A stretch of 64,000 nt of DNA. Origin: an uncultured Planctomycetia bacterium (GTDB lineage Bacteria > Omnitrophota > Gorgyraeia > 1-14-0-20-64-10). Shown here piece after piece: positions 1,475-45,151 of this stretch. Under the pieces are notes generated by a model. It saw nothing but the letters and a program-made list of their open reading frames with translations. It ran no database searches and was not told the DNA's origin. A program made the position numbers and the translations under genes. The stretch is taken from positions 126 through 64,125 of the forward strand of contig CAYJQV010000005.1 in the NCBI GenBank assembly GCA_964372395.1, read 5' to 3'. The stretch's first letter is position 1. Each line of letters opens with the position of its first letter.

Positions 1475-3088
1475 ATGCCGCTGAGCATGAAGCTCTCGGT
1501 GGGGGCGAGTTTCCTCCTTCTGCTCCTCATTGCGCTCTCCAGCTCGATGGTCCTGCGCGTGGCGTACGGCGCCTTCATGGGGCTCATCGGGGTGTCGCTC
1601 CTGAGCACCCTGGAGACGATGCGCCGGCAGATGTCCGGATACGAGAAGGAGCTGGACCGGATCAACCGGATCTGCGAGGAGCTGGATCAGAACACGAAGA
1701 TCATCGTCCAGACCGACCTGGAGCTCACCCGGACCCAGGAGGCGCTGGACAAAAAGCTCTCCGGCCTGTACGCGCTGCACGGGCTCTCGAAGAGGATCCT
1801 CTCCGTGCGGTCGGTGGGGGAGTTGTGCCGGCTCACAGCGGAGGCCCTCGTCACCTCCCTCGGATTCGAGAAGGCCCTCCTGCTGGTCGCCCCCCAGGGC
1901 GAGGAGCTCCTCCCCGTAGTCGCCCAGGCCGGATTCGCGCCGGAGGAGCTCAAGCAGCTCAACCTCACGCAGTTCGCAGAGGACCTGCGCTTCCCCATCT
2001 ATGGACCGGGTGAGCCCCTTTTCGTCGAGGAGATCGACCCTCAGAAGAACTCGGTGACGGTCCAGCCGGCCACCGTTCCCGCGGAGACGGTCCGTGCCCT
2101 GGGCCAGGGGGTGGGGGCGCGCTCCTTCGGCGTGGTCCCCCTCACCCTGGAGGGACGGGTTCAGGGGTTCCTCCTGGTGGGCACCAATCCCCCCTACCCG
2201 CGGCTCGATTCCGGCGATGTGGAGCTCATGTCGATCCTCGTCAGCGAGGTAGGGGTGGCGATCGAGAACCTTCGCCTGTATGAGGCGCTGAAGCGCTCGC
2301 ACGATGAGTTGGAGGAGCGGGTGAAGATCCGCACGCAGGAGCTGGCCAAGGCGAACGAGGAGCTGGTGCGCCTGAACAAGATGAAGTCCGACTTCGTCTC
2401 CGCGGTCTCCCACGAGCTGCGGACCCCGCTGACCTCCATCAAGGGATACACCGCTCTGGTCCGGGGCGGCAAGCTGGGGGCCGTCACCAAGGAGCAGACC
2501 GAGCGGCTGGAGAAGATCAATCGCCACACCGACTACCTGACCAACCTCATCTCGGATCTCCTGGACATCGCCCGCATCGAGTCCGGAAGGGTGGGGATGA
2601 ATGTGCGGTCGGTGGAGCTGCCCCGGATCGTGGAAACGGTGGTGGACCTGGTCGGCCCGCAGCTCAAGGAGAAGGAGCTCAACGTCAAGGTGAAGCTCCC
2701 GACCCGGCTGCCTGCCCTGCAGGCGGACGAGAGCCAGCTCCAGCGGGTGCTCATCAATCTGCTCTCCAACGCCATCCGGTTCACGCCGCAGAACGGGATC
2801 ATCTCCATCACCGCGACACCGACCGACTCCATGCTCCGGGTGGAGGTCACCGACACCGGCTACGGGATGTCCAAGGAGGACCTGGGCCATCTCTTCACCG
2901 AGTTCTTCCGGGCCGACAACCCGGTGAACCGGGAGCGGAAGGGGACCGGCCTGGGCCTGGTCCTCGTCAAGAGAATCATCGAGGCGCACGGGGGACAGAT
3001 CGGCGTCCGGTCCGAACTGGGGAAGGGCTCCACCTTCACCTTCACCCTGCCCTGGCAGCCCACCGCGCAGCCGGCGCAGAAACCCTGA
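1475..3088 (+). CDS. Sensor histidine kinase with N-terminal TM segment and GAF domain (HisKA + HATPase_c)
   Basis: 537 aa; H-box [12 protein letters not shown]-box [10 protein letters not shown]-boxes DTGYGM and GTGLGL; hydrophobic N-terminus; GAF-like region between TM and the coiled-coil linker. Confidence 0.85.
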
Positions 3089-3117: not shown

Positions 3118-3498
3118 ATGGCCGGTCCCCTGATCCTCGTCGTGGATGATGAGAAGGACATCGTCGAGATCATCTGCGATCTGCTCGCCGGGGAGGGCTT
3201 TCGCAGCCGCGCCGCTTACGACGGCCGGCAGGCGCTGGAGGAAGTCTCCCGCCAGCGGCCGGATGCGGTCATCCTGGACATCAAGATGCCGGTGCTGGAC
3301 GGGCTGGAGGTGATCCGCCGGATCCGGGCCGAGCCTTCGACGGCCCCCCTTCCGATCGTGGTGCTCACCGCCACCCAGGTCATCCAGGAGCTGCAGGACC
3401 GATTCCGGGAGCTGCGCGTGGCGACCTGGATCTCGAAGCCGTTTGAGCCGGAGGCGCTCGTGGCGGCGGTCAGACGCGCCTTGAAGAGGGCTCCGTGA
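3118..3498 (+). CDS. Single-domain response regulator (CheY-like receiver)
   Basis: 126 aa; LILVVDDEKD... DAVILDIKMP... receiver-domain signature with phospho-acceptor Asp context. Confidence 0.8.
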   Translation: MAGPLILVVDDEKDIVEIICDLLAGEGFRSRAAYDGRQALEEVSRQRPDAVILDIKMPVLDGLEVIRRIRAEPSTAPLPIVVLTATQVIQELQDRFRELRVATWISKPFEPEALVAAVRRALKRAP

Positions 3499-4430
3499 TG
3501 GCCAAAGAGCGGATCCTCGTGGTGGACGACGAGCCGGACATCCGGGATGTCCTGCGCCTGACGCTGGAGTCGGAGGGATACCAGGTCTTTGAGGCGGCTG
3601 ACGGCTCCGAGGTTCTCCCGCAGGTGGAGAAGATCAACCCCCAGCTCATCCTGCTCGATTTCAAGATGCCCCGGGTGGACGGCCCGCACGTCTGCCAGAC
3701 CCTGAAGAAGGACATCCTCCTGCAGCATCTGCCGATCATCATGCTCACCTCGAAGGGGGAGGTGACCGACAAGGTGGAGGGCATCGATGCCGGCGCCGAC
3801 GACTACCTTACCAAGCCCTTCGATCCGACGGAGCTCCTGGCCCGCGTCCGGATGGTGCTGCGCCGGACCGCCCGGGCGCTGGACGCCAATCCACTCACCA
3901 AGCTGCCGGGCAACGCCTCCATCCTCGAGGAGCTGCAGGGCCGACTGGCGAAGGGAACGCCCCTGGCGGTCTGCTACGTGGACCTCGATCAGTTCAAGGC
4001 GTTCAACGACACCTACGGCTTTGAGCGGGGGGATGAGCTGATCAAGGCCACGGCCCGGATCCTGCTGCTCGCCATGCGGGATTTCGGGACCCCGCAGGAT
4101 TTCCTGGGGCACATCGGCGGGGACGACTTCGTTCTGCTGACGGAACCGTACTGTGTCGAGCGGATCTGCAACCGGATCACCCAGGAGGTCGGCCGGACAA
4201 CGCCCTCCTTCTACGACGGGCCGGACCGGAAACGGGGCTTCATCGAGGCGAAGGACAGGGACGGAAAGACCCGCCGCTTTCCCCTGCTGACCGTCTCGGT
4301 CGCCGTCGTGACCAACGAGCAGCGGGCGCTCCGGCACGTGGCCGAGGTCGCCCAGATCGGCGCGGAGCTCAAGGAGTGGGTGAAGGCCAAAGGCGGCAAC
4401 CGCTGGGTGAAAGACCGGCGCGTGGAGTAG
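3495..4430 (+). CDS. Response regulator receiver + GGDEF-domain protein (PleD-like; noncanonical GGDDF motif)
   Basis: 311 aa; ILVVDDEPD...LILLDFKMP receiver followed by a GGDEF-family domain (YVDLDQFKAFNDTYGFERGDELI ... GHIGGDDFVLL); start ATGATG overlaps the upstream stop (ATGA). Confidence 0.8.
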   Translation: MMAKERILVVDDEPDIRDVLRLTLESEGYQVFEAADGSEVLPQVEKINPQLILLDFKMPRVDGPHVCQTLKKDILLQHLPIIMLTSKGEVTDKVEGIDAGADDYLTKPFDPTELLARVRMVLRRTARALDANPLTKLPGNASILEELQGRLAKGTPLAVCYVDLDQFKAFNDTYGFERGDELIKATARILLLAMRDFGTPQDFLGHIGGDDFVLLTEPYCVERICNRITQEVGRTTPSFYDGPDRKRGFIEAKDRDGKTRRFPLLTVSVAVVTNEQRALRHVAEVAQIGAELKEWVKAKGGNRWVKDRRVE

Positions 4431-4457
4431 TTCACCCTGATGATCGTAGAACTGGTT

Positions 4458-4859
4458 CTAGAGGGAACGCCAGAAAAGCGAGGGCGGAACAATCTTGATT
4501 CCCCGGACTTCCTTAAGATCCAGGAGATCCCGATCTCCTGTCACCAGAAGATCTGCGTGGACAGCTAAGGTAAGCCAGAGAATCGGCAGGTCTTTGGGAT
4601 CCGGACAGACAAGAGCCTTCCTGGCCGGAGGATCCAGAACCTGACAGACACCTTGAAGCCAACGCTGGACGCGTTCCCGCTCCTGCTTCGTCGCTCCGAT
4701 CTTGTGGGCAAGAACCCGATCGATCTCTCCCAGGATGTAAGGGGAAATGAATACCTCGCAGGAGCCGAGGGCTTCCTCAACGACATCCTTCGACGACCCT
4801 GAGGCAACAAGCGCTGCGATCCAGACGTTGCTATCAAAGACTACCCTGAAAACCGGCAC
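4458..4859 (-). CDS. vapC: PIN-domain toxin (VapC family)
   Basis: 133 aa; N-terminal VVFDSNVWIAAL and conserved acidic residues characteristic of the PIN fold; immediately downstream of a small RHH gene. Confidence 0.7.
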   Translation of the reverse strand: MPVFRVVFDSNVWIAALVASGSSKDVVEEALGSCEVFISPYILGEIDRVLAHKIGATKQERERVQRWLQGVCQVLDPPARKALVCPDPKDLPILWLTLAVHADLLVTGDRDLLDLKEVRGIKIVPPSLFWRSL

Positions 4860-4868
4860 CCTGCCCTT

Positions 4869-5090
4869 TTAAGAGCGAACCGTCCGAAAGACATCCTCAT
4901 CCGTGAAGATTCCCTTGGCGCGAGCTTTCGGCATCAGGCTCTTTCTGAGCTCCTCCAGCTCATACCTCCTGAAAAAATCCCGTAGCGCGAGCTTCACCAC
5001 TTCAGAACGGGTCAAATGCACCTCCCGGGTGACCTGGTTCAGGGCCCGGGCCAATGCCTCAGGCAAACTCACACTCAGCAACGACCGCAT
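4869..5090 (-). CDS. vapB: Ribbon-helix-helix antitoxin (CopG/VapB-like)
   Basis: About 73 aa from an internal Met (MRSLLSVSLPEALARAL... RHH beta-strand plus helices). This start was preferred because a GAAGGAGG Shine-Dalgarno lies 6 nt upstream and a TTGACA / 15 nt / TATTAT promoter-like region lies in an unusually AT-rich stretch at 5091..5165. Confidence 0.55.
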   Translation of the reverse strand: MRSLLSVSLPEALARALNQVTREVHLTRSEVVKLALRDFFRRYELEELRKSLMPKARAKGIFTDEDVFRTVRS

Positions 5091-5165
5091 GGCAGCCTCC
5101 TTCAAGCCTCTATATGAAAATATAATACATTTATATGACTCTGTCAATACCTCCTGCGTGGGGTT
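5091..5165 (-). promoter_or_regulatory. AT-rich promoter-like region upstream of the VapBC-1 operon
   Basis: Minus-strand TTGACA(5143-5148 rc) / TATTAT(5122-5127 rc) and a GAAGGAGG RBS; a local GC trough in an otherwise GC-rich window. Confidence 0.4.
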
Positions 5166-8100
5166 CTAGAGGTTCCCGCCGAGCGTGTCGGTGTCGGCGG
5201 CGATCTCCTCGAATACCGCGGGCAGCGAGGCCTCCTCCATGCCGGCAAGAGCCATGAGGAGCTGGCCCAGGCTCTCCGGCGCGAAGATGATCTCGTTCAA
5301 GCCCCCGCCGACACTGAAATCGAACCGCGTCCGTCCCACGGTCGCCGTGCCCAGCTCCCCCGCAGCCGCCGGGACCACCTCACCGAGCATCCATTGCTCC
5401 TCGGCAACCGCCGAGGGCCGCGCCCCCAGCCGAACGGTCGGCACCCCTAATCCGAGGGCGTCGAACCGATCCCCCTGATCCTCCCAGAGCATCTGGGCGA
5501 CTGGAATTCCCCGGTCTGTGAGGGAACGGGAAACCCCCACCGCGCCGGGGAACAGCAGGATCGGCCCCGGAGCCCTCCGCGATTCTTCCTCCTCCATCCC
5601 GGCGGCGACAGGAACAGGCAAGACGTTGACCTGGGTGCGGAAGAGGTTGCCGAGAAGCTCCTTGCGGGAGGGATCGCGCCCGCGCTCCTCCTCCCTTCGC
5701 TCCCGCGAGAGGGTGTCGGCGGCTGTCCCCAGCCGCGCTGCCTCCGCGGGAGGATACCCCAGGAGGTTTCCCAGTCGGAAGGCGGCGATCGCCGCGTGAG
5801 TGGCGCCGCTGGTGTAGGTGAGCCGCAGGACCGGCGAAGGAAGGACCTGAACCCGAGCCCTGTCGTTCACCAGCACCAGCCCGCCTGCCCTCACCGGGAT
5901 CAGCCACTCGCGGATGCCGTGAGTCCGACGGAGAGTCTCGGCCTGTGCCGCCGCCTCCTCGGGCCGGTAGCGGAGGGCCCTGCCAGACGTTCCCAGGAAA
6001 TTGGCGAGGGTTTCCTGCGCGGTGATGAACAGGTCGGGCCCCACCTCCTGAAAGCGGGTCCGGGTGGATGAATCCCAGGAGGCGTTGGCCTCCACGATCG
6101 TGGGGAAGCCCCTTCCCTTCGCCCACCGGGCCTCTTCCACCTGGGCATGGTTCGAGGGCTCATCCACCAGCCGCTCACCCAACGCCAGATGTGGAACAGG
6201 CCGTCCCTCCTTTTCAGCTCGCGCCGCCTCCTCCTCCATGACGCGTCGGACTTCCTGAGCCGCTTCCCGGATTGCCTCCGGAGGAAGTGGAGTTCCTACA
6301 CCAACCAGCCGCCTCTCCGCACCGGAATCGCTGGCCACCATGAGACTGACCCGCGAGGATTGACCATCCTTTCGGAGAATAGGCTCGATGGTGACGCCCT
6401 TGCCGCGCAGGGTCTCCACAATCGCCTCACCGGTTTCACCGCCCACCACCGCCACCAGCTCCGCGGGGGCTCCCAGGGCATGGGTCGCCTGCACAAGGTT
6501 CGGGGCAAAACCGCCCGGATGGAGACGCACGGCAAGCTGCTTGGTTCCATCGGCCCGGGTCTTCACTGAAACGACAAGGTCGAGTGTCCCGTTTAAGCTC
6601 AGACCCACGAGGGTCGGAAGCCTCTCCTCCCTTTCGGCAGCTCTTTCTGGCGGAGGGGGAATTTCCTTTTCCAATCTCACCAGATGGGGGAAACGCTCCG
6701 CGTACATCCGGACCAGCCGGAAGGCCTGCTGGGTAAGCTGATCGCGGCTCTCGCCCAAGCGCCCGAAGGCCTCCACGGTACGATGGCTCCAGCGTCCGAT
6801 CCTCTCGAATAGCTCGATGAGTTGGCCCAACTGCCGGGGCTCGCGAATCTCATTGAGCGTGCGGAGGGCGCTCCGGACCTCCTCATCCGCATCGGCATTC
6901 AGCGGCCGGTCGCCGGGCTGTGCCCGAAGGCGGGCAAGGACCTGGGCGATCCCCGGGTGATCCCACGGAAGGCCGATCCGCTCGTAGGCTTTGATGAGGC
7001 GAGCCTCCAGGAAACGGTCCTCAAAGATCTCCCGCCGGGAGATGAGCAGGATCCTGCGAATCTCCATCAGCCCCATCTTCACGTCCAGGACCGGACGGCC
7101 CTGACGGACCAGGGGGCGGGACCTGTCGTAGCGGGCGCGGTGCTCCCGGGCAGGGTCGGTCTGGTTGACGAGGCCAAACCTCTCCATCTCTTCCCAGCCC
7201 ATCAGGCGGAACTGCCCCGGGGAAAGCTCCGCCACCCAGTAATCCCGGTCTGCCAGGGGCTTGGCGTAGTCGTCCGACGGCCTCCACCTTTGGTCGCCCG
7301 CGGGAGGCACCGGCTCCGCCAGGTTCCTTGGGGTGATGAAGAGCCTTCCTAAGCCATCTTCTCCCACAACTCCCCAGACGTTGTACTCGGTCAGCGCCAC
7401 CCCCGGTTCCTTCAGCCAATCCAGGATCTGGCTGGCCCGGGCGATCATCGCATCCTGCTCGGCCCGGGTGCCCTGGCCTTCCAGGACAAAGGTGGTCATG
7501 CCGGGATTCTTGAGGATCCCCACCCGGATCCCGCGCAAAAGGAAAAACCACTCGATCTCATCATCCCCGGGATTGTCCATCGGCATCCTCCAGGGGATTC
7601 CATGCAGATGCGCCCACTCGGGGAGGCTGGCCGCCGCCTTGAGGGCGATGTTGCCCCCGACCACCGTGCCGATCCCCCTCTGCAGCCACATCTCCCGCAC
7701 CGCAGCCCGGATCGGCTCGGCCCACCGGGCCTGATCCACCTGCTGAGCGACCGGCATGGTGAAGTGTCTCCAGGTATAGCCGTAGGGGCTCAAGCGGTAG
7801 TCGACGGGGTTATCCAGATCCTTCGCAAACCCCGGCAGGGTTCTCTGCCGGAGGGTCTCGATCCGGTCCCCCACGACAAACCGGATGGGATGCGCGTCAT
7901 CCAGCGGATGGGGAGCCTGCTGGCCCGGCTCGGGCGCAGGAGGTTTCGGGGTATTGGCCCGATTGGGGTTGAACATGATGTCCACCGGCCCGTCGGGCAA
8001 GACCCCCACCCTGTACTCGGTGCCGGTGAAGAAGTCCCGCTTCTGCACGTCCACCGCCTGCTGCTGGGCGACAAAGGCCTGCACCGCCTCGGCAGGGGAG

Positions 8101-9146
8101 ATCTTTCCCCGGCTGACCAGCTCATTCAAGCGGGGAGCCCGCTGATCCCGGGAGATCACCTTGCCGGTCACCACACCCTGGTTGGCCAGCGTGAGCTGCC
8201 CGGCTGCCTCGTCCAGACCCCTCTGTGCACGGGCCAGCTCTTCAGCATCTCCAACTCGGGCAGCCGCCTCAGCCCGCTCCTTTGCCTGCAAGAAGGCCTG
8301 TCGTGCATTCTGCTGCGCAAGGGCGAGCTCCTGCTCCCCATCCTCGACCCCGATGTCCCGCAGACGGCCGGTGGGCTCCGAGAGAACCTGCGAGGGATTG
8401 GGCGGCCGGATCCGAATCCGCCCCGCCGGATCCAGGCGATACCACTGGTTGTTCCAAAAGAGCTCCACCGTGAAGGAATGATCGCCAACGTACTCCGGCT
8501 TGGCCTCCAGGCGCCCCTCGAACCGGACCCAGCCGTCCGGCCAGACATTGCGCACCTTCATGCCGATCGTCTTTTCCTTCACCACAATCCTTCCTCCGTC
8601 TCCTGAAAAGATCGAAAGCTGGATCTGCACCCGTTTCGGGATGTACGGGGCGAGCTCCTGCTTGATCCTCCCGCGCAAGACGGGGCTGACCCCTTCGCCG
8701 GGCCTCACTCCCTTGAAATAGAGGTCGCCGGAGTCCAGGCTCCCGTCGCCCGGCAGTTGCCTCACCAAGTCCTGAAGAGCAGGCGGAAGCTGCGAGACCC
8801 GGATGGAGGCGAAGAAACGCTGATACTGAGGCGGCCCGCCCCGCGTCCCCATGATGGTCATGCGGGGGAGCCGCTCCCCGCCGAACGGAACCACGTCTCC
8901 CCCGTCCTTCCAGACGAGCTGTGCCGGCGGCGTATCCGGATCCTCCGGCTCCGGGAAGGTCATCTCCTCCATGCCGGAGCGGAGGAGGTTCTGCCCCTCG
9001 GTGTCCTGGATGCGGCGCAGGGTGGCTGGCTCGTCCGAAAGGGCCCAAGCCGGGATGGGATCTCCCAGAAGGAGGGAGAGGATGAGAGGGCCGCTGAGAG
9101 CCGGTTTCAGGAACCGGCCTGGCTTTTCTATCGGCTTCTGAAGCAT
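5166..9146 (-). CDS. Large secreted multidomain protein of unknown function with C-terminal degenerate PfkB/ribokinase-like domain
   Basis: About 1,329 aa from an internal Met (MLQKPIEKPGRFLKPALSGPLILSLLLGDPIPAWALS = signal-peptide-like). The C-terminal third has PfkB-family landmarks, HPGGFAPNLVQA (cf. GGKGANQA) and TYTSGATHAAIAAFRLG (cf. DTTGAGDAFxGAF), with the catalytic Asp replaced. The remainder has no recognisable motifs. Confidence 0.5.
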   Translation of the reverse strand: MLQKPIEKPGRFLKPALSGPLILSLLLGDPIPAWALSDEPATLRRIQDTEGQNLLRSGMEEMTFPEPEDPDTPPAQLVWKDGGDVVPFGGERLPRMTIMGTRGGPPQYQRFFASIRVSQLPPALQDLVRQLPGDGSLDSGDLYFKGVRPGEGVSPVLRGRIKQELAPYIPKRVQIQLSIFSGDGGRIVVKEKTIGMKVRNVWPDGWVRFEGRLEAKPEYVGDHSFTVELFWNNQWYRLDPAGRIRIRPPNPSQVLSEPTGRLRDIGVEDGEQELALAQQNARQAFLQAKERAEAAARVGDAEELARAQRGLDEAAGQLTLANQGVVTGKVISRDQRAPRLNELVSRGKISPAEAVQAFVAQQQAVDVQKRDFFTGTEYRVGVLPDGPVDIMFNPNRANTPKPPAPEPGQQAPHPLDDAHPIRFVVGDRIETLRQRTLPGFAKDLDNPVDYRLSPYGYTWRHFTMPVAQQVDQARWAEPIRAAVREMWLQRGIGTVVGGNIALKAAASLPEWAHLHGIPWRMPMDNPGDDEIEWFFLLRGIRVGILKNPGMTTFVLEGQGTRAEQDAMIARASQILDWLKEPGVALTEYNVWGVVGEDGLGRLFITPRNLAEPVPPAGDQRWRPSDDYAKPLADRDYWVAELSPGQFRLMGWEEMERFGLVNQTDPAREHRARYDRSRPLVRQGRPVLDVKMGLMEIRRILLISRREIFEDRFLEARLIKAYERIGLPWDHPGIAQVLARLRAQPGDRPLNADADEEVRSALRTLNEIREPRQLGQLIELFERIGRWSHRTVEAFGRLGESRDQLTQQAFRLVRMYAERFPHLVRLEKEIPPPPERAAEREERLPTLVGLSLNGTLDLVVSVKTRADGTKQLAVRLHPGGFAPNLVQATHALGAPAELVAVVGGETGEAIVETLRGKGVTIEPILRKDGQSSRVSLMVASDSGAERRLVGVGTPLPPEAIREAAQEVRRVMEEEAARAEKEGRPVPHLALGERLVDEPSNHAQVEEARWAKGRGFPTIVEANASWDSSTRTRFQEVGPDLFITAQETLANFLGTSGRALRYRPEEAAAQAETLRRTHGIREWLIPVRAGGLVLVNDRARVQVLPSPVLRLTYTSGATHAAIAAFRLGNLLGYPPAEAARLGTAADTLSRERREEERGRDPSRKELLGNLFRTQVNVLPVPVAAGMEEEESRRAPGPILLFPGAVGVSRSLTDRGIPVAQMLWEDQGDRFDALGLGVPTVRLGARPSAVAEEQWMLGEVVPAAAGELGTATVGRTRFDFSVGGGLNEIIFAPESLGQLLMALAGMEEASLPAVFEEIAADTDTLGGNL

Positions 9147-9260
9147 GGAGTTAGGGTGGACAAAAAAACGCCGCTCGGCGCTTGCCGGAAGTATGCCACA
9201 GGATCGCCACAGCGGCAAGGTGAAGTTGAGCTAAGTTTATTTGATTAACGCGGCCTCTGC

Positions 9261-9674
9261 CTAATCCAGCAGATCCAAGAAGCGGGCGGGATCGGCCATC
9301 TCAACGGAGCGGAATCTTCCGATGCCCAGGAGTGCCGCATCCCCCGTGATCAGATAGCGGACACCGGCGGTCACGGCGCAGGCGAGGAATTTGACGTCAT
9401 CCCGTTCAACCCCGGCGGGCGGACCGGCTCGCAGAGGAACGTCCTCAACCACCTCGGCGTAAGGCAGGACGATCTCCTCAATGACCTGCCTCACCTCGCG
9501 AGGGGAGAGCTGCAGCTTCGGATAGCTCAGGACGTGCAGGTATTCCCGGACGATTCCCCGCGAGACGACCGGGCGCATCCGATCCGCCATCCACGCCTCC
9601 ACGACCCGGCGTGTGGTCGTGCCCCGCCGGATTGCAGCCACCAGGACGTTGGTGTCAACGACGGCACGGATCAA
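9261..9674 (-). CDS. vapC: PIN-domain toxin (VapC family)
   Basis: 137 aa; MIRAVVDTNVLVAAI...; the PIN acidic-residue pattern; a 4-nt overlap with the upstream antitoxin gene. Confidence 0.7.
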   Translation of the reverse strand: MIRAVVDTNVLVAAIRRGTTTRRVVEAWMADRMRPVVSRGIVREYLHVLSYPKLQLSPREVRQVIEEIVLPYAEVVEDVPLRAGPPAGVERDDVKFLACAVTAGVRYLITGDAALLGIGRFRSVEMADPARFLDLLD

Positions 9675-9922
9675 CGTTTCCGTGCCCAGCGGACCGCCTC
9701 TTCAATCTCCTCCTCGGCGATTCCCAACCGCTCCCATTTCCGGCTGATTGCGTCCAGCACCGCCAGGCCCTTGTCCCGCGGGCTGACTTGAACCGGAGAG
9801 AGCACGATCCTTCGACCCGTCACCTCGCATTGAAGGAGGTCCCCCTGGCGGATCTTCAGCGTCGTCACCGCCTCCCTGGGCAAGGTAATCTGGTACTTGC
9901 TCAACACCTTCCGTAGCATCAT
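9671..9922 (-). CDS. AbrB/MazE/SpoVT-family antitoxin (VapB-like)
   Basis: About 83 aa from the internal MM start (MMLRKVLSKYQITLPREAVTTLKIRQGDLLQCEV... swapped-hairpin AbrB-like fold); stop overlaps the vapC start. Confidence 0.6.
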   Translation of the reverse strand: MMLRKVLSKYQITLPREAVTTLKIRQGDLLQCEVTGRRIVLSPVQVSPRDKGLAVLDAISRKWERLGIAEEEIEEAVRWARKR

Positions 9923-9956
9923 GGCCTCATCCCCCTCAACTCCCAGTATATCTGAA

Positions 9957-9981
9957 AGTAGGAAAGTAGTCAATACCTACT
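9957..9981. promoter_or_regulatory. Inverted repeat AGTAGG-N13-CCTACT upstream of the VapBC-2 operon (candidate operator)
   Basis: AGTAGGaaagtagtcaataCCTACT lies 35-60 nt upstream of the antitoxin start in a relatively AT-rich spacer. Confidence 0.35.
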
Positions 9982-10055
9982 AAGCATGCCGGCGGAAACC
10001 TTGAAGAATCGGTTATTCAACCGATATTTCAATGCAGATCTGAAGGGGCGGTGCC

Positions 10056-13000
10056 TCAGCGTGCCGGCAGGCCGGCCTTGGCCTGGGGGGCGCCGGCGGC
10101 CGCCTCGAGCTGGACCACCTCCTTCTTCGGAGAGACCTTCCAGAAGAGGGGCAGAGCGTTTCCCCAGTCGGACAGAAGCTCCTCCGCCCGACGGCTTCCG
10201 GTGAGCTCCCGGTGCCGGAGGATCATCGATTTGAGCAGGTTCTGGTCCTCCGGATCCTCCACCCGGTGAAGCTCGACGAGGGCCGGGTTGAGCTGTTTGG
10301 GGAAGAGCTCCTCCGGATCGAGAACGAAGGCCTCCCCGCCGGTCATCCCGGCGCCGAAGTTCCGGCCGGTGGGGCCCAGGACGACCACGAGGCCGCCGGT
10401 CATGTACTCGCAGCCGTGATCCCCCAGCCCCTCGACCACCGCACGGGCACCGGAGTTGCGCACGCAGAACCGCTCGCCGGCCCGGCCGGCCACGCAGAGG
10501 GTTCCGCCGGTGGCGCCGTAGAGGACGGTGTTGCCCGCCAGCACAAGCTCCTCGGAATGAGCCGGGATCTTCGGATTCGGACGGATTCCGATCTCCCCGC
10601 CGTGCATCCCCTTGCCCACGTAGTCGTTGGCGTCTCCGGTGAGCAGCAGGCGAATCCCGGAGATGAGAAAGGCGCCGAAGGACTGCCCCGCTGAGCCGGA
10701 AAGCTGCACCTCGATCGAAGCGCCGGCGGGGAGCCCCTGGTCGCCATAGCGGAGGGCGATCCCGTGCGACAGCCGCGTCCCGATGGAACGCTGGTGGTTC
10801 TTCACCGGATAGCGGAGCGTGACCCGCGCCCTGCCCTCGAGGGCGGGCCGCGCCTCGGCCAGGATCTCTTCATCGAGCGGGGTATCCCCCTCCCGGTCGT
10901 TGCGGGAGACGATCCGGCGCCGCGGGCGTTGCCGGCTGGGATCCGGGTCGGCCAGAAGCGGGGACCAGTCGATCGTCGCCCACTTGGGGTTCTCCTTGGC
11001 CTTCGGCCTGACGGCCAGGAGATCCACCCGGCCGATCACCTCGTCCAGCGAGCGGTACCCGAGCTGCGCCAGGATCCGGCGCACCTCCGTCGCCACGAAG
11101 GTGAAGAAATTCACCACGAAGTCCGGCGGGCTCTTGAACTTGGCGCGCAGCTTCGGATCCTGGGTCGCCACGCCGACCGGGCAGGTGTTGAGGTGGCACT
11201 GCCGCACCATGCAGCAGCCGGCCGCCACGAGGGCCGCGGTCCCGAAGTTGAACGACTCGGCACCCAAAAGAGCCGCCACGACCAGGTCCCGCCCGGTCTT
11301 CATCCCCCCGTCGGTGCGGACCGCGATCCGGCCGCGCAGGTCGTTCATCACGAGCACCTGTTGGGTCTCCGCCACCCCCATCTCCCAGGGGGCGCCGGCG
11401 TTCTTGATGGAAGAGAGGGGGCTGGCTCCGGTTCCGCCGTCGTGGCCGGCGATGTGCACGACGTCGGCATAGCCCTTCGCCACCCCGGCGGCGATCGTCC
11501 CCACGCCGGCCTCGGCCACGAGCTTCACGCAGACCTCCGCCTGGGCGTTGGATGCCTTCAGGTCATAGATAAGCTGCGCCAGGTCCTCGATCGAGTAGAT
11601 GTCGTGGTGCGGCGGCGGGGAGATCAAGGTGACGCCGGGAATGGAGTGGCGGATCCTGGCAATCTCCTCCGAGACCTTGTGGCCGGGGAGCTGGCCGCCC
11701 TCGCCCGGCTTGGATCCTTGCGCGATCTTGATCTCCAGCTCCCGCGCCGAGGAAAGATACGCGGGCGTGACCCCGAACCGGCCCGAGGCCACCTGCTTGA
11801 TGGCGCTGTTGGCGGAGTCGCCGTTGGGCAGCGGCTTGAATCGGACCGGATCCTCGCCCCCCTCGCCGGAGTTGGACTTGCCGCCGATCCGGTTCAGGGC
11901 GATGGCCAGGCACTCGTGGGTCTCGCGTGAGAGGGCCCCGTGAGACATGCCAGCGGTGCAGAAGCGCCGGCGGATCGACTCCACCGGCTCCACCTGATCG
12001 AGCGGGACCGGACCGCGGTCCGACTTGAAATCCAACAGGTCCCTCAGGCAGATCGGCTCCCGCCCGTTGACGGCCGCAGCGTACTTCTCGTAGTCGGCCC
12101 ATTCGCCGGAGTGGACCGCCGTGTGCAGGGCATCCAGCACCACGGGATTGAAGGCGTGGCTCTCCCCGTCCCTCCGGAACCGGTAGAAGCCGCCCGGCTC
12201 CAGCGCCGCGGCGGCCGGTTCCGCTCCGGTCCCTGCCGCCTGCGGCCCGTACCCCGATGCGTGCAGCGCCAGGACGTCCCTGGCGAGCAGATCGAAGCCG
12301 ATCCCGCCGATCCGGGAGACGGTGCCGGTGAAGCAGGCTTCGATCACCTCGTTTCCCAACCCGATCGCCTCGAAGATCTGCGCACCCCGGTAGCTCGAGA
12401 CGCAGGAGATCCCCATCTTGGACATGATCTTGAGGATCCCATCCTCGACCGATTTCTCGTAGTTGGCGTAAGATTGCTCCAGCGTCACCCCCTTGATCGT
12501 GCCCTTGGCGTGCGCCCAGGCGATCGCCTGCAGCGCGCCGTAGGGATGGATGGCCGCGGCGCCGTACCCGATCGCCAGCGCGTAATGGTGGATGTCCCAC
12601 GCCTGCGCGGTCTCGCAGACCAGGGAGGCCCTCATCCGCTTGCCGCGCCGGATGAGGTTGTGGTGCACCGCCCCCACCGCCATCTGCAACGGCATCGCCG
12701 CTTGTTCGGCGCTCATCCCGCGGTCGGTGAGGATGAGGATCGTGTGCCCGGCGTCCACCGCGGCGGCCGCCGTTTCACAGAGCCGCCCCAGCGCCTTCTC
12801 CAACCCCGCCGGCCCGTCCGAAACCGGAAAGAGGATCGGGATCCGGATCGATCGGAAGGCCGGGTCGCGGAGCCCCTCGATCCAGGCGAGCTCCGGCTCC
12901 GAGAGGGCCGGCGAGCCGAACTTGATCCACCGGGCGTGCTCGGGGCTCTCCTCCAGAATCGAGCCGCGCGCGCCGAGGGCGGTGTTGAGCGACATGACGA

Positions 13001-20081: not shown

Positions 20082-22220
20082 TCACAGGAAGCTCCGCACC
20101 GCTTCCAGCACGTCGTCCACCCCGATCCGGCGCATGCACTCCATGCGGCCCTCCCCGCCGCGGTAGCAGCTCCGCCGATAGCAGGGGCTGCAGGGAAGAT
20201 CCACGCGGAACAGCTTGAGCTGCGGGCTGGGCGGCAGGTGCCGCACCGGATCGGTGGGCCCGAAGAGGGCAACAAGCGGAGTCCCCGCGGCCGCCGCCAC
20301 ATGAAGCGGCGCGGAGTCTCCTCCGATGAAGACGCGGCAGCGGCCGAGCAGCACGGCCAGCTCGTTCAGGGAAGTGGCCCCCACCGCCATCACCGGCTTG
20401 GCCTGCGCCGCGCGGTGAATCTCCTCGCAGAGGGCCCGCTCCCCCTCCGAGCCCACGAGAACAACGCGCGCCTTGGCCTGATGAGCCAGGCGATCGATGA
20501 GCTCAACGTAGCGTTCGGCCGGCCAGCGTTTGGAGGCCCACCGCGCACCCGGATGCACGCCGATGAGCGGCTGATTCTGGGCGACCCACGATTCCCCCAG
20601 CAGCTCCCGCACCCGCTCCTCATCCACCGGCCCGGGCCACAGCTCCAGGTGCTGGGCGGCCGCCTGGATCCCCAGCCACTGGAGGAGCCGCAGCTGCTGT
20701 TCCACCGGCGGGGTCGGCCCCTCCGGCGGAGGCACCTTGTGGGTCAGGAGCCAGCTCCAGCGCCGGCCCGCGAAGCCGTAGCGCTGCGGGGCGCCGCTCA
20801 AGCATCCCAGCCAGTGGCTGACCCGATTGTTCTGAAAATCGACCACGAGATCCACCTGGAGGTCCCGCAGGCGGGCCCCCAACCGCAGCAGCCCGGATAA
20901 CGAACCGTCGCGAAGGGAATCGTAGACGATCAGGTCATCCAGGTAGGGACAGCGGTGGAGCAGCTCCCGCTGGTCCCTGCCCACAACGACCGAGAGAAAC
21001 GCCTTCGGAAACCGCTCCCGCAGGGCGCGCAGCGATGGGGTGGCCAGGACCACATCGCCGGCGGCGCTGAGCTTCATGACGAGGAGCCGGAGCCGCTCGG
21101 CGCTCTGACGGTACACCTCCAGCGTATCGCTCACCATCCTCGAAAGCGGGTAAACCGTCTCGACCCGCCGGCGGTTCTCATGGGCCAGCTCCGCAGCAAG
21201 CTTCCGGTCCCTGAGCAGGGTCGACATCGCCGTCGCCAAGGCGACCGGATCTCCGGGGGGAACCAAAAGCCCGGTCCTGCGATCCAGGATCACCTCGGGG
21301 ACTCCCCCGACCCGGGTCGCCGCCACCGGAACGCCGGCCGACCCGGCCTCGATCAGGACCCGGCCGAACGCCTCCTGCCCCGTGGAAGACAGGACGATCA
21401 GGTCGGTCTCCTGAAGGAGCCGCGGGACATCCGACTCGTGGCCGGTGAACTCCACCCTGTCCTGCAGGTCCAGGTGAGAAACGAGCGACTTGAGCTGCGC
21501 CAGATACCTGGCATGCCGGGGGTCCGCATCCCCGACGATCTTCAGGCGGGCGCGCGGGAAGCTCCTGGAAAGGATCCCGAAGGCCCGGAGGAGCTCCCGA
21601 TGACCCTTGAACGGCGTCACCCTCCCGATGGCGGCGATCCTCCATTCCCCCTTCGGCGCCTCCAGCCGGAGCTCCCTCCACGGAAAGCGGCCCAGATCCA
21701 CCCCGCGGGGGATCACGCGGATCCGCTCCGGCGGGACATGGAAAAGATCGATCATGTGCCGGGCGATCCGCTCGGAGTTGGCGATCACCATCCGGCCCCA
21801 GCCCATCACCCGGCTGAAGGGATGATTCGCATAGTAGCCGTGCGCGGTGGTCACAAAGCAGGGGATCCGCTGGCGCGACCCCACCCGGAAGCCGGCCCGC
21901 GCCGCGACCCGGCGCCAGGCCAGATACCCGATGAGGGCCGGAACGCGGCTGCGGGCATGCACGACATCCACGCCGTGCGATTCCAGGATCTCGGCCACCC
22001 GCGGAACCAGGCGCAGCGCCGTCCAGGGATTCTTCCGGTGGATCGGCAGCGCATAGTGGATGGCACCTGCCGCCTCCAGCTCCCGGACCAGCGGGCCGCC
22101 GGAAGAGATCACGATCGCCCGGTGCCCGCCGGCGGCGAGGGACCGGGCCAGATCCACCGTGCCGGTTTCCACCCCGCCGCCCTTGAGCGAGGGGACCATC
22201 TGCAGAACGGTCAGGACCAT
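20082..22220 (-). CDS. Bifunctional glycosyltransferase: N-terminal GT4 fused to C-terminal GT9 heptosyltransferase
   Basis: 712 aa; residues about 1-370 are GT4-like (MVPSLKGGGVETGTVDLARSLAAGGH..., EAFGRVLIEAGSAGVPVAATRVGG); residues about 375-712 are GT9-like (LLVMKLSAAGDVVLATPSLRAL..., FIGGDSAPLHVAAAAGTPLVALFGPTD). Confidence 0.7.
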   Translation of the reverse strand: MVLTVLQMVPSLKGGGVETGTVDLARSLAAGGHRAIVISSGGPLVRELEAAGAIHYALPIHRKNPWTALRLVPRVAEILESHGVDVVHARSRVPALIGYLAWRRVAARAGFRVGSRQRIPCFVTTAHGYYANHPFSRVMGWGRMVIANSERIARHMIDLFHVPPERIRVIPRGVDLGRFPWRELRLEAPKGEWRIAAIGRVTPFKGHRELLRAFGILSRSFPRARLKIVGDADPRHARYLAQLKSLVSHLDLQDRVEFTGHESDVPRLLQETDLIVLSSTGQEAFGRVLIEAGSAGVPVAATRVGGVPEVILDRRTGLLVPPGDPVALATAMSTLLRDRKLAAELAHENRRRVETVYPLSRMVSDTLEVYRQSAERLRLLVMKLSAAGDVVLATPSLRALRERFPKAFLSVVVGRDQRELLHRCPYLDDLIVYDSLRDGSLSGLLRLGARLRDLQVDLVVDFQNNRVSHWLGCLSGAPQRYGFAGRRWSWLLTHKVPPPEGPTPPVEQQLRLLQWLGIQAAAQHLELWPGPVDEERVRELLGESWVAQNQPLIGVHPGARWASKRWPAERYVELIDRLAHQAKARVVLVGSEGERALCEEIHRAAQAKPVMAVGATSLNELAVLLGRCRVFIGGDSAPLHVAAAAGTPLVALFGPTDPVRHLPPSPQLKLFRVDLPCSPCYRRSCYRGGEGRMECMRRIGVDDVLEAVRSFL

Positions 22221-22227
22221 CGGGCCG

Positions 22228-24249
22228 TCAGAACCACCGCTTCAAGAACTCCACCGCGGGATCGGCCTGCGGGGCCTCTCCTTCGCCGGGCCGCCCTGCG
22301 ATCTCCGCGACCGCTCGGCCGACCTCTTCCGCCTGCACCAGGGCCACCTTGCCCCGGGAGTGCATTCCTTCCAGGAACCGCCGGTACTTCGACGCCCGGG
22401 AGAAAAGCCCGTCTCCCCTCGGAGGGAAAACCACCACCGGCTTCGCCGCCTCGGCCGCCTCCGAAACCATGGAGATCGAATCGCCGGAAACCACCATGGC
22501 ATCGGCCAGGCCGAGGATGCAGGGGACCGCCTCGGAGGGATCGGCGAGCCCTTCCGCCTGCGCGTGATTGACCAGGGCGAGAAGCCGGCAGCGGGGGTTG
22601 CCGGCCAAGGCCCGCTGGAGCCAGCTCTCCAGCTCAACCGGGGTCCTGCGGGAAGTGGTCACCAGGAGCTCCGCGTCCTCCTTCTCGGCAGCCGAGAGAA
22701 GCCCCTGCACCACCTGCTCCACATCCCGCGGCTCCAGCCGGACCCCGCGCGTGGGTCCGCCCAGCAGCAGCCCCCACCGGCGCCGGGAAGAGAGGTTCAG
22801 CCGTCTGCGCCAGTCTTCCAGCTGCCTCTCCTCACAGGAGCGCTCCGGGCCGAGCGCCCCGTCCATCACCAGGAGGTTTCCCCCGGTGGATGCGTGGGGT
22901 CGGTCATGCCGCGGGATCACCGCCAGGTCAAAACGGCGCCGGGAGGGAATCCGAGGGTCTGTCACATGAATCGGCCGGGCCCGGATCGCCCAGGAGAAGA
23001 GCAGATTCACCGCCGCGGTCGAACCGCCGCAGGAGATGCAGAAATCAGCGAACGCCCCGCCCAGCTCCCGCGCCGTCTCCGGCGTCAGGGCCCAGCGCAA
23101 CAGGCGTTCCCCCCCGCGGAATTTCCGGGGCACAACGGAAGCGACCGCCGCCAGAAGGTTTCTCCGCAGGGGCGACCGGAAGGCCACCTCCACCGTTTTC
23201 AGCGAAACGAGCGAGCGATTGCCGGCTCCCATCCGGTGATCGCTCGACATCCGCTGGCCCCAAGCCGCCTCGATCCGCTGCGCCAAACCCCTGGACTGAT
23301 TCAGGTGGCCCGCTTTTCCGTCGCTGAGGATCAGGATCCGGCGCTCCGGCGTCGATTTCCAGCGGCGGTGGAGCCAGAGCCACTGCTCCGGGTGCCTGCG
23401 GACGAAGCGCTCCAGCACCGCCAGATAGGCCGCCACCCCTGCATGGATCCGCTCATCCATCGTCCCCTCTTCCGGGATCGCCAGCGGCTCCTCCACCACC
23501 AGGAGATGGGACGGCCCTCGCTGGCGGACCATGAAAACCGGCAGGATCGGTGCTCCCGTCGACAGGGACAGGCCGATGGGGCCCGGCGCTGTCGAGGCGG
23601 TTCGGCCGAGGAAGGGGCAGAGCACCCCATGCGAACCGCCGTCCTGGTCGGCCAGGATCCCGATGATGCCGCCCTTTTGAAGGCCCTGGACGAGCTGCCG
23701 GACCGCGAAGCCCTTGGTCACGACCTGACACCCCTTCGATTCCCGGTAACGGGTGAGCAGCCGATTCAGCCGAGGCCACCCCTGTTCGCGGGCAAGCACC
23801 TGCGTGGGATAACCGTGCAGGGCCCCGGTGATGCTGATGAGCTCCCAGTTCCCGAAGTGGCCGGTGAGGAAGATGACCCCCTTGCCCTGCGCCAGGGCCG
23901 CCTCCAGTCTCTCCCGGCAGCCGGGGGCGACCTTGACCCAGCGATCCACATAGGCCCGGTCGATCCGCGGGATCGCGGCAATCTCCATCAAGGTAACCCC
24001 GAGGTTCTCGAACAGCACCCGGACGATCCGGTGCAGTTCCTCCGGCCGGCGGCTGGATCCGAATGCCGCGCGCAAGTTTGCCAGCGCCACCACCCGCCGC
24101 GAGGGGAACAGGCGATAGAAGAGGCGTCCGGCCGCCGCCCCGGCAGCCGCATTCCAGTGAGGAGGCAGCCGCTGGGCGAGGGCGCTAACGCCCCTGGCCA
24201 GCCAGTACAGAACGGATTCGGTGTAGAAGCTCGTCTTCATCGGGTTCAA
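22228..24249 (-). CDS. Fusion of lipid A secondary acyltransferase (LpxL/HtrB family) with an ELM1-like (DUF1022) domain
   Basis: 673 aa; the N-terminal roughly 300 aa have the LpxL-type HFGNWE motif (FLTGHFGNWELIS) and LADQD; the C-terminal roughly 350 aa (RRILILSDGKAGHLNQSRGLAQ...) resemble ELM1-family proteins commonly found beside waaA. Confidence 0.6.
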   Translation of the reverse strand: MNPMKTSFYTESVLYWLARGVSALAQRLPPHWNAAAGAAAGRLFYRLFPSRRVVALANLRAAFGSSRRPEELHRIVRVLFENLGVTLMEIAAIPRIDRAYVDRWVKVAPGCRERLEAALAQGKGVIFLTGHFGNWELISITGALHGYPTQVLAREQGWPRLNRLLTRYRESKGCQVVTKGFAVRQLVQGLQKGGIIGILADQDGGSHGVLCPFLGRTASTAPGPIGLSLSTGAPILPVFMVRQRGPSHLLVVEEPLAIPEEGTMDERIHAGVAAYLAVLERFVRRHPEQWLWLHRRWKSTPERRILILSDGKAGHLNQSRGLAQRIEAAWGQRMSSDHRMGAGNRSLVSLKTVEVAFRSPLRRNLLAAVASVVPRKFRGGERLLRWALTPETARELGGAFADFCISCGGSTAAVNLLFSWAIRARPIHVTDPRIPSRRRFDLAVIPRHDRPHASTGGNLLVMDGALGPERSCEERQLEDWRRRLNLSSRRRWGLLLGGPTRGVRLEPRDVEQVVQGLLSAAEKEDAELLVTTSRRTPVELESWLQRALAGNPRCRLLALVNHAQAEGLADPSEAVPCILGLADAMVVSGDSISMVSEAAEAAKPVVVFPPRGDGLFSRASKYRRFLEGMHSRGKVALVQAEEVGRAVAEIAGRPGEGEAPQADPAVEFLKRWF

Positions 24250-45025: not shown

Positions 45026-45151
45026 CCTATCGTCGGGCTCCGGACAATCCATGGAGGAAAAGCCGATGGTGCGCATCGGGTCCCGTATTAAAAGTTACTC
45101 GACAGCGGGCAGACTTTCAAGGAGAAATATCTTCCTATTTATTTCTGCTAA

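Follow-up and report, generated by a model that had tools for sequence, protein, structure and literature searches.

A predicted exported protein of Omnitrophota that joins HIT-like and PfkB-like folds, encoded between two toxin-antitoxin pairs

A large gene of an uncultured Omnitrophota bacterium encodes a predicted exported protein that joins a HIT-like and a PfkB-like fold. The gene lies on contig CAYJQV010000005.1 of assembly GCA_964372395.1, and we analysed the 64,000-nucleotide stretch around it (contig positions 126 to 64,125, the window), whose numbering is used throughout. Its open reading frame (ORF) runs on the minus strand from an ATG at 9146 to a stop at 5166-5168 and specifies 1,326 aa; the 1,329 aa of the original prediction, made by a model from the sequence alone, was a small miscount. 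Each single fold in the protein is already known, and their combination seems undescribed: a HIT–PfkB pairing with export, a beta-sandwich, a coiled coil and motif-delimited modules is absent from Pfam, NCBIfam (June 2026), the PDB and the searchable literature.

The locus and its toxin-antitoxin pairs

All genes from gltB to the last toxin gene are co-directional on the minus strand. They are transcribed in the order gltB (14663 to 10056), an AbrB-type antitoxin with its PIN toxin, the large gene, and a ribbon-helix-helix (RHH) antitoxin with its PIN toxin (Table 1). Convergent plus-strand genes lie downstream and encode a FIST protein (268-1458), a HisKA kinase (1475-3088), a receiver (3118-3498) and a receiver-GGDEF protein (3495-4430).

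Table 1. Features of the large gene and of the toxin-antitoxin pairs on either side of it, in window coordinates
Feature	Position	Strand	Basis or detail
VapC-like PIN toxin 1, 133 aa	4458..4859	-	Pfam PIN_3 E 2.9e-15; TIGR00305 44.5 bits vs cut-off 29.15
RHH (CopG-type) antitoxin 1, 73 aa	4869..5090	-	Pfam RHH_1 E 8.7e-5, 22.8 bits vs cut-off 20.5
Sigma-70-like promoter, pair 1	5119..5147	-	TTGACA-17-TATATT, 11/12 match
C-terminal alpha/beta domain, ~140 aa, ending '…LAGMEEASLPAVFEEIAADTDTLGGNL'	5169..5588	-	Low-confidence model; third motif at nt 5232-5246
Second motif, A-G-M-E-E, residues 1182-1186	5589..5603	-	Between PfkB-like and C-terminal domains
PfkB-fold domain, Pfk-2/LacC/FruK subgroup, residues 836-1180	5607..6641	-	Pfam PF00294, model B, Foldseek
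Helical bundle between HIT-like and PfkB-like domains, residues ~706-835	6642..7031	-	Model A helices H657-H762
Small helical segment and Ap4A-phosphorylase/GalT-type HIT-fold domain, residues ~326-705	7032..8171	-	Foldseek on model A
Antiparallel coiled-coil hairpin, residues ~256-325	8172..8381	-	Model A helices H204-242 and H245-266, pLDDT >93
Pro-rich linker and beta-sandwich (Ig-like/E-set-like), residues 62-255	8382..8963	-	Model A strands E26-E191, pLDDT 70-90
Mature leader, residues 36-61	8964..9041	-	'TLRR…', with S-G-M-E-E 15 residues on (nt 8964-8978)
Predicted Sec-type signal peptide, residues 1-35 (…PIPAWA|LS)	9042..9146	-	Sequence features and hydropathy
Upstream element of the large gene	9163..9220	-	TTGCCG 9218-9213, 17-nt spacer with TG, CATACT 9195-9190
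VapC-like PIN toxin 2, 137 aa	9261..9674	-	Pfam PIN_3 E 1.2e-15; TIGR00305 45.9 bits
AbrB/MazE-type antitoxin 2, 83 aa	9671..9922	-	Pfam MazE_antitoxin E 7.2e-7, 29.5 bits vs cut-off 24.7
Sigma-70-like promoter, pair 2	9945..9973	-	TTGACT-17-TATACT, 10/12 match

The large gene is a core gene that diverges fast and keeps its chromosomal position, and the toxin-antitoxin pairs are secondary insertions. Homologues occupy the same slot in three other assemblies: L001, a Candidatus Omnitrophica metagenome-assembled genome (MAG) holding the closest homologue (P0002, 41% identity); L002, a MAG labelled Planctomycetia (P0003); and L003, another Omnitrophica MAG, with a distant member (P0010). All three keep the order gltB – large gene – GGDEF response regulator – HisKA kinase (– FIST), and in L001 P0002 sits between gltB and the regulator, kinase and FIST cluster. 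No PIN or antitoxin homologues were found in L001, L002 or L003, and only ~117-119 bp separate gltB from the large gene in L001 and L003. When window proteins were compared with L001 and L002 by tblastn, the large protein reached 38-41% identity against 65-82% for the products of the flanking genes (gltB 75-82%, GGDEF regulator 70-73%, kinase 65-71%). A scan of genome contigs matched only the contig of P0003.

Both toxin-antitoxin pairs are canonical type II VapBC modules. As originally proposed, the large ORF has an RHH–PIN pair on one side and an AbrB–PIN pair on the other, both with promoter-like spacers of their own. In both, a PIN toxin is preceded in one operon by a small DNA-binding antitoxin, with a 9-nt gap in pair 1 and a 4-nt overlap in pair 2. 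Only two sigma-70-like matches occur in 5.9 kb (0.4 expected by chance), each directly upstream of an antitoxin. GC content is ~0.60 across the modules, against 0.65-0.70 around them. Nothing notable distinguishes them from ordinary members of their class, and they stand as co-directional insertions in the two spacers around the large gene. By sequence they are predicted to be independent addiction modules, and nothing found here ties them to its function.

This placement contradicts the proposal that the region is accessory or island DNA. On that account the large gene would encode an island-borne accessory secreted factor, delimited and stabilised by its two VapBC modules. The modules are real and lower in GC than their surroundings, and GC at third codon positions (GC3) of the large gene, 0.79, is slightly below the 0.85-0.92 of its housekeeping neighbours. 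We nonetheless consider an island scarcely credible, because an orthologue fills the same gltB/GGDEF-kinase slot in three genomes from which the toxin-antitoxin pairs alone are missing. The hallmarks of integration are absent as well: there is no tRNA in the 64-kb window, no integrase, and no meaningful flanking direct repeat. The neighbours are core genes of metabolism and lipopolysaccharide biosynthesis (ilvB, ilvD and heptosyltransferases). For annotation, the lesson is that toxin-antitoxin modules on both sides do not turn the enclosed gene into an island.

A conserved element precedes the large gene and bears on its start. CCTTG(C/T)C-N17-TGTGGCA(T/C)ACTT aligns upstream of the gene in the window and in L001 (~5090-5186), L002 (~1218-1303) and L003 (~9900-10000). 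Behind the motif stands a terminator-like hairpin (9183-9166 in the window) whose sequence varies among the four genomes, then a T-run, then the ATG within 5-20 nt. A longer version of the ORF from a TTG at 9218 is unlikely; we prefer ATG 9146 because the TTG falls within this element and because a second gene call, P0001, made independently, is likewise 1,326 aa. The element may act as a promoter of the extended -10 type, its hairpin lying in the 5' leader or serving as an attenuator; alternatively, it may mark where an upstream transcript ends. A sigma-54 promoter, considered for its TGGCA, was rejected on inspection since the GG–GC spacing is inconsistent between genomes, and an Rfam scan of 4300-10200 gave zero matches.

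Several further observations concern the neighbourhood. The stretch from the gltB stop to the promoter of the AbrB antitoxin (9985-10055, minus strand) contains a perfect palindrome, ATCGGTT-GAAT-AACCGAT, which may terminate gltB transcription or serve as an operator for the inserted toxin-antitoxin module. In the window, L001 and L003, gltB encodes ~1,510-1,535 aa and is followed by the large gene, not by the small subunit gene gltD; L002 retains only the 3' end of gltB, and the large gene is likewise next. A gltB that does not adjoin gltD suggests a ferredoxin-type single-subunit glutamate synthase. A functional link of the large gene to nitrogen or amino-acid metabolism is possible; relatives carry glutamate dehydrogenase, serine hydroxymethyltransferase (SHMT) and pyridoxal phosphate (PLP) enzyme modules, and the FIST sensor cluster lies on the other side. 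Farther away, a 743-aa ORF (22060-24291, plus strand) has no Pfam match at E<=1e-5 and a GC3 of 0.71, lower than its neighbours; it may not be a real gene.

Folds and export of the large protein

Predicted structure resolves domains that sequence profiles miss. Single sequences and a three-sequence profile of the N-terminal and central regions found nothing usable in Pfam, NCBIfam or the PDB, so structure prediction was needed. We built AlphaFold models with alignments of relatives for residues 57-835 (model A) and 836-1326 (model B). Model A is confident, with a predicted local distance difference test score (pLDDT) of 87.5 and a predicted template modelling score of 0.86. For model B the overall pLDDT is 82, rising above 90 in the PfkB part and falling to low values across the final ~140 residues. 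The original prediction had seen no recognisable N-terminal or central domains, which stands for sequence profiles and fails for structure, where AlphaFold and Foldseek identify them. The whole protein has no confident match to any characterised family, as had been anticipated.

The central domain has a double HIT-like alpha/beta fold of the GalT/Ap4A-phosphorylase branch. Its best Foldseek matches in the PDB are yeast Apa2 (4i5w/4i5v, E 4.6e-6, probability 1.0, TM(target) 0.66) and a DUF4931 protein (4qvu, E 1.8e-5). Pfam DUF4922, Ap4A_phos_N and GalP_UDP_transf gave no match to this region even at E<=10. The assignment is supported transitively by a relative, P0017, because it matches the profile of the central module (E 9e-22) and also exceeds the Pfam cut-off for DUF4922 (33.2 bits against 23.6), which we take to be a member of the HIT clan. 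P0017 matches Ap4A_phos_N weakly and carries the canonical motifs 'YNPGRAWRP' and 'NHGKEAGASVPQHAHLQ'; P0002, P0004 and P0007 match DUF4922 below the cut-off.

The active-site region of this domain appears partly retained. GalT-branch HIT enzymes carry the motif HXHXQ, in which the second His is the nucleophile; the corresponding Apa2 residues are N148, S156, H159, H161 and Q163, and Q-to-H mutants of Apa2 and At5g18200 have been crystallised with bound substrate (bioRxiv 10.64898/2026.09.13.751320). Alignment to P0017 and motif spacing place N499, S507, W511, H513 and H515 of the large protein at these positions, with W511-A-H513-L-H515 encoded at nt 7602-7616. The Asn, Ser and two His residues (N499, S507, H513, H515) are kept in the seven closest members, the large protein included; in P0017 the motif reads H-A-H-L-Q, the canonical form. 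Apa2-type enzymes and the large protein share the spacing Asn-(8)-Ser-(3/4)-X-x-His-x-(Gln/His), and by this alignment a His stands at the nucleophile position. We take the Q-to-H mutants to have served to trap substrate. By this analogy the HIT-like domain likely binds a ligand and may turn it over poorly, because His513 is kept while the first His has become Trp and the Gln has become His, as in the trapping mutants. The large protein departs from Apa2-type enzymes in reading W-A-H-L-H where they have H-x-H-x-Q, in lacking a Pfam or PDB sequence match over this domain, and in its predicted export and its fusion of the fold with beta-sandwich, coiled-coil and PfkB parts.

The PfkB similarity is genuine, not spurious. 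PF00294 matches residues 865-1147 (E 4.4e-10, 39.8 bits against a cut-off of 25.8), and Foldseek aligns the domain with E. coli Pfk-2, LacC and FruK (PDB 3uqd/3cqd, 2awd, 2abq; E 2e-22, TM 0.83-0.85), with HldA also among the matches. Its placement at the C-terminus was wrong, as the domain covers residues ~845-1180 and a tail of ~140 aa comes after it. NCBIfam 1-PFK (TIGR03168) scores far under its cut-off, and equivalog models reach 29-41 bits against cut-offs of 216-353 bits.

The substrate site of this domain is better kept than its catalytic loop. 'SLNGTLD' and the GG dipeptide are present in the large protein, and D856, G878-G879, R932, R992 and W1024 are invariant in 19 aligned sequences. 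The catalytic Asp of GAGD is replaced, as first noted: phmmer aligns 'SGATH' with 'vGAGD' of Pfk-2, which puts His1117 (codon 5796-5798) in the place of the Asp. Among the aligned sequences 17 of 19 keep that Asp, which is lost in the large protein and P0012. The second Gly of GXGD is never kept, being Ala, Thr or Ser in relatives and Thr here. The Asn of NXXE is missing from all members at the 'FITAQET' / 'F(V/I)(T/S)P(L)(E/D)' segment, in an alignment-based register that is somewhat uncertain, and 11 of the 19 have an acidic residue in it. The large protein therefore shows the fold, profile match, substrate Asp and GG hinge of the PfkB family and lacks its GXGD Asp and NXXE motif. A non-kinase, ligand-binding role in this protein is plausible from these residues, in line with the sugar- or nucleoside-binding pseudokinase first suggested; the term does not extend to the family, because 17 of the 19 sequences keep the Asp.

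Comparison with known kinases sharpens this reading. The domain shares with Pfk-2, LacC and FruK the fold, PF00294, the 'T/SLNPxLD' signature, the GG and the position of the GXGD loop. It differs in the three substitutions just described, in being embedded in a 1,326-aa exported protein, and in a predicted compartment without ATP. A PfkB Pfam match does not make the large protein a carbohydrate kinase. HldE is a PfkB-type heptose kinase fused to an adenylyltransferase. The large protein resembles HldE/RfaE in fusing a PfkB-type domain to a nucleotidyl-transfer domain, and it has a weak TIGR02198 match; its domain order is reversed, a HIT fold replaces the cytidylyltransferase fold, export is predicted and the kinase base is missing. 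Nothing points to a common pathway.

The protein is predicted, with moderate confidence from its sequence, to be exported and to act in the periplasm or outside the cell. The signal peptide seen earlier stands up: its n-region is rich in Lys and Arg (K4, K8, R11, K14), its hydrophobic core spans ~13 residues (15-27) with a Kyte-Doolittle peak of 2.15, and A-W-A occupies positions -3 to -1. Relatives with a complete N-terminus all carry a signal of this type, followed by (L/F/M)R(P/x) and, 4-30 residues later, by [AST]G[LM]EE. This bipartite leader is disordered in the model (pLDDT <50) and recurs in an unrelated second protein family. Pfam and NCBIfam scans found no transmembrane segment, lipobox or known sorting domain that could anchor the large protein.

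The remaining parts complete the architecture. The beta-sandwich is conserved in the family ('VNVWPDGAIRFEG…PPNPAQ'), and its PDB matches by Foldseek are weak (only Ig-like or CBM21-like, E>0.01). The helical bundle between the two enzyme-like folds is likewise conserved across the family. The C-terminal domain is common to P0010 only (35% identity, identical GGNL end), and used alone as a query it found zero matches among 5.8e9 proteins. A universal C-terminal sorting domain was considered and dropped: a hidden Markov model of the 171-aa '…R.A' domain of most relatives misses the C-termini of both the large protein and a second window protein described below (hhalign probability 0.2%), and the resemblance by eye was abandoned. 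Separately, a helix-hairpin at residues 338-373 ('LVSRGKISPAEAVQAFVAQQQA', window ~8028-8135, minus strand) matches the tandem repeat unit 'LVKEGKLTPEQAKKLLAAY' of four unrelated ~900-aa repeat proteins (P0020, P0023, P0024, P0026), whose C-termini look VirB10/DotG-like by eye. It is probably a common helical motif.

A rare modular family and its linker motif

The family appears, from sequence searches, to be very rare, restricted to Omnitrophota and fast-diverging. A profile of residues 322-833 was searched exhaustively against 1.84 billion representative proteins and returned 26, four of which match through the short helical repeat only. The 22 true matches (P0001-P0019, P0021, P0022, P0025) include the large protein and two relatives used in the query profile. 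Among 5.8e9 clustered proteins there were 3 matches. Members with a source name come from Omnitrophica MAGs and the one MAG labelled Planctomycetia.

Relatives carry extra enzyme modules on the same core. Members range from 700 to 2,400 aa, and the additions comprise a glutamate/leucine dehydrogenase (P0006, P0017), a PLP-dependent enzyme (P0005, P0025), SHMT with a methyltransferase (P0013), GNAT with an alpha/beta hydrolase (P0004), GH13 (P0007, P0022) and a second PfkB domain with an intact GAGD (P0002).

A short motif, [AST]G[LM]EE (hereafter GLEE), marks the linkers between modules. The large protein has it at residues 57-61, 1182-1186 and 1301-1305, the first two copies in segments with pLDDT <50 (the second at model B residues 347-358), and it recurs at module junctions in relatives. 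Across the family G[LM]EE occurs ~45 times, against ~2 expected from shuffles. Among window ORFs of at least 200 aa (GC3 filter, ~34,800 aa with overlapping frames), the motif is found only in the large protein and in ORF 41912-45076; among the candidate ORFs of L001-L004 it is confined to proteins of the HIT–PfkB family. A signal at the RNA level, suggested by the resemblance of the codons GGN-(C/A)TG-GAG-GAG to the Shine-Dalgarno sequence GGAGGAG, was unconvincing. The constraint falls on protein and not RNA, because GGAGG turns up 25-34 times in each gene, the Gly codons are variable, and Leu and Met dominate over other NNG-encoded residues; the Leu codons of the motif end in G in 7/7 cases, a slight excess from too few cases.

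The second motif-bearing ORF of the window (41912-45076, minus strand) encodes a further exported protein of 1,054 aa without a Pfam match. Its leader reads signal/transmembrane segment – 'TLRP' – TGLEE – AGMEE, with an internal AGMEE at residue ~891. Homologues (P0033-P0036), Omnitrophica where labelled, have the same leader and internal GLEE motifs, and this family is unrelated to the HIT–PfkB family. Two genes away lies a PilT/T2SSE-type ATPase (46998-48074, minus strand).

Giant Omnitrophota proteins offer a parallel. Their genes adjoin loci resembling type II secretion systems, and their proteolytic processing has been proposed, with cleavage points not known (West-Roberts et al., bioRxiv 10.1101/2023.11.21.568195). 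Like the large protein, they are large, exported and multi-domain, carry carbohydrate-related domains and belong to the same phylum. They exceed 30,000 aa and have transmembrane regions, C39/S8 peptidase domains and SecA-like domains, whereas the large protein has 1,326 aa and none of these. The HIT–PfkB core and the GLEE motif are both absent from that study, and a literature search for the motif found no relevant paper.

Proposed function and alternatives

Our best explanation, held tentatively and at somewhat less than even confidence, is an exported modular protein that handles nucleotides or sugar phosphates outside the cytoplasm. Its order is Sec signal, leader, beta-sandwich, coiled-coil hairpin, HIT domain, helical bundle, PfkB domain and C-terminal alpha/beta domain, the parts being joined by disordered linkers with the GLEE motif. 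It would act outside the cytoplasm and without ATP. The HIT-like domain, retaining His513 at the nucleophile position, Ser507 for the alpha-phosphate and Asn499, would bind and perhaps cleave a nucleoside-5'-phosphoryl compound by phosphorolysis or hydrolysis, neither of which requires ATP; candidate ligands are an NDP-sugar, a dinucleoside polyphosphate or a nucleoside diphosphate (NDP). The PfkB-like domain, having lost the base and the NXXE Asn and kept the sugar-site Asp856 and the GG hinge, would be a binding module for sugar phosphates or nucleosides and not a kinase. Because relatives carry their extra enzymes on the same core, that core may also be the constant frame on which an exported multi-enzyme protein is built.

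Several points weigh against this proposal. Only P0017 exceeds the cut-off of a Pfam HIT family, which the large protein itself does not match, and the residue equivalences come from motif spacing and alignment rather than an inspected superposition. The large protein has Trp511 at the first His of the motif and His515 at the Gln, so by analogy phosphorylase turnover may be poor. About half of the family, its distant members, lack both HIT histidines, which favours a structural over a catalytic core. Activity, ligand and localisation are read from sequence and predicted structure. The glutamate dehydrogenase, SHMT, PLP enzyme and active PfkB of relatives need cytoplasmic cofactors and fit poorly with action in the periplasm or outside the cell, unless another cell is reached. 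That exported relatives carry modules dependent on NAD(P), PLP and ATP is the main unexplained point, and delivery to another cell is worth considering.

The cofactors could instead mean that the protein never leaves the cytoplasm. It would then be a bifunctional sugar-nucleotide enzyme, kinase plus nucleotidyltransferase in the manner of HldE, whose hydrophobic N-terminus is a mis-called start or a membrane tether; the domain logic resembles that of kinase-nucleotidyltransferase fusions, and there is a weak NCBIfam rfaE_dom_I match (E 2.9e-4). We regard this as very improbable, given signal peptides conserved in ~12 N-complete members, with positive n-regions and, in most, AxA sites, h-regions that seem too short to span a membrane, a start codon backed by the conserved upstream element and a large protein that lacks the kinase base. 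An exported scaffold or adhesin is more credible, though still rather unlikely. Both domains would be non-catalytic, the core an oligomerisation and display platform, and the Ig-like domain and coiled coil would project it from the cell surface to present variable modules or bind host or prey ligands. Both parent families form dimers, beta-sandwiches and long coiled coils are typical of surface stalks, and divergence much faster than that of neighbours is frequent in surface proteins. Catalytic loss is also mosaic, affecting the HIT histidines in about half of the family and the PfkB Asp in the large protein and P0012, and the NXXE Asn is missing family-wide. Against a scaffold stand the coherent Asn, Ser, His, His set of the seven closest members, the Asp in 17 of 19 PfkB sequences and another five invariant residues, of which D856 and the GG dipeptide lie at the substrate site; this conservation exceeds the needs of a pure scaffold. 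The scans for an anchor also came back empty.

A further possibility, doubtful on balance and compatible with our best explanation, is that the protein is a polyprotein. GLEE would be a cleavage or recognition site that cuts an exported precursor into leader, beta-sandwich–HIT–PfkB core, C-terminal domain and, in relatives, extra enzymes, or else a sorting or attachment signal in many exported Omnitrophota proteins. The motif is ~20-fold enriched in the family and, save for ORF 41912-45076, missing from all other window ORFs of at least 200 aa. It falls in low-pLDDT segments at domain boundaries, directly precedes the core in every member with a visible core N-terminus, brackets the methyltransferase, SHMT and other modules of P0013, and is again paired with the signal-peptide/LR leader in an unrelated family of Omnitrophota; cleavage of large proteins in the phylum has, moreover, already been proposed (bioRxiv 10.1101/2023.11.21.568195). 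Yet a protease partner and proteomic support are both missing, the literature does not mention the motif, and some module boundaries lack it. It also occurs inside folded C-terminal domains ('YLAGLEEAE', 'QVGLEELxxxL') in a helix N-cap-like setting, and a habit of starting helices this way in the lineage may account for part of its enrichment. More broadly, the motif and leader together (Sec signal – (L/F/M)R(P) – 4-30 residues – GLEE) might be a new linear signal for maturation, sorting or attachment of exported polyproteins whose interchangeable enzyme cassettes, on a constant core, are released or displayed outside the cell. We consider this version somewhat unlikely.

The large protein joins two familiar cytoplasmic enzyme folds in an exported, fast-evolving member of a family confined to Omnitrophota. 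Omnitrophota are uncultivated, ultra-small and possibly predatory or parasitic, and their action on other cells is largely unexplained. The family prompts the question of what use a nanobacterium has for cofactor-dependent enzymes beyond its cytoplasm. If the cassette idea is true, they would be released or displayed, perhaps inside, or at the surface of, a host or prey cell, and GLEE would give large and giant Omnitrophota proteins the cleavage-point rule that they have so far lacked. As a simple sequence rule, the linker motif lends itself to checking against metaproteomes and the giant proteins themselves.

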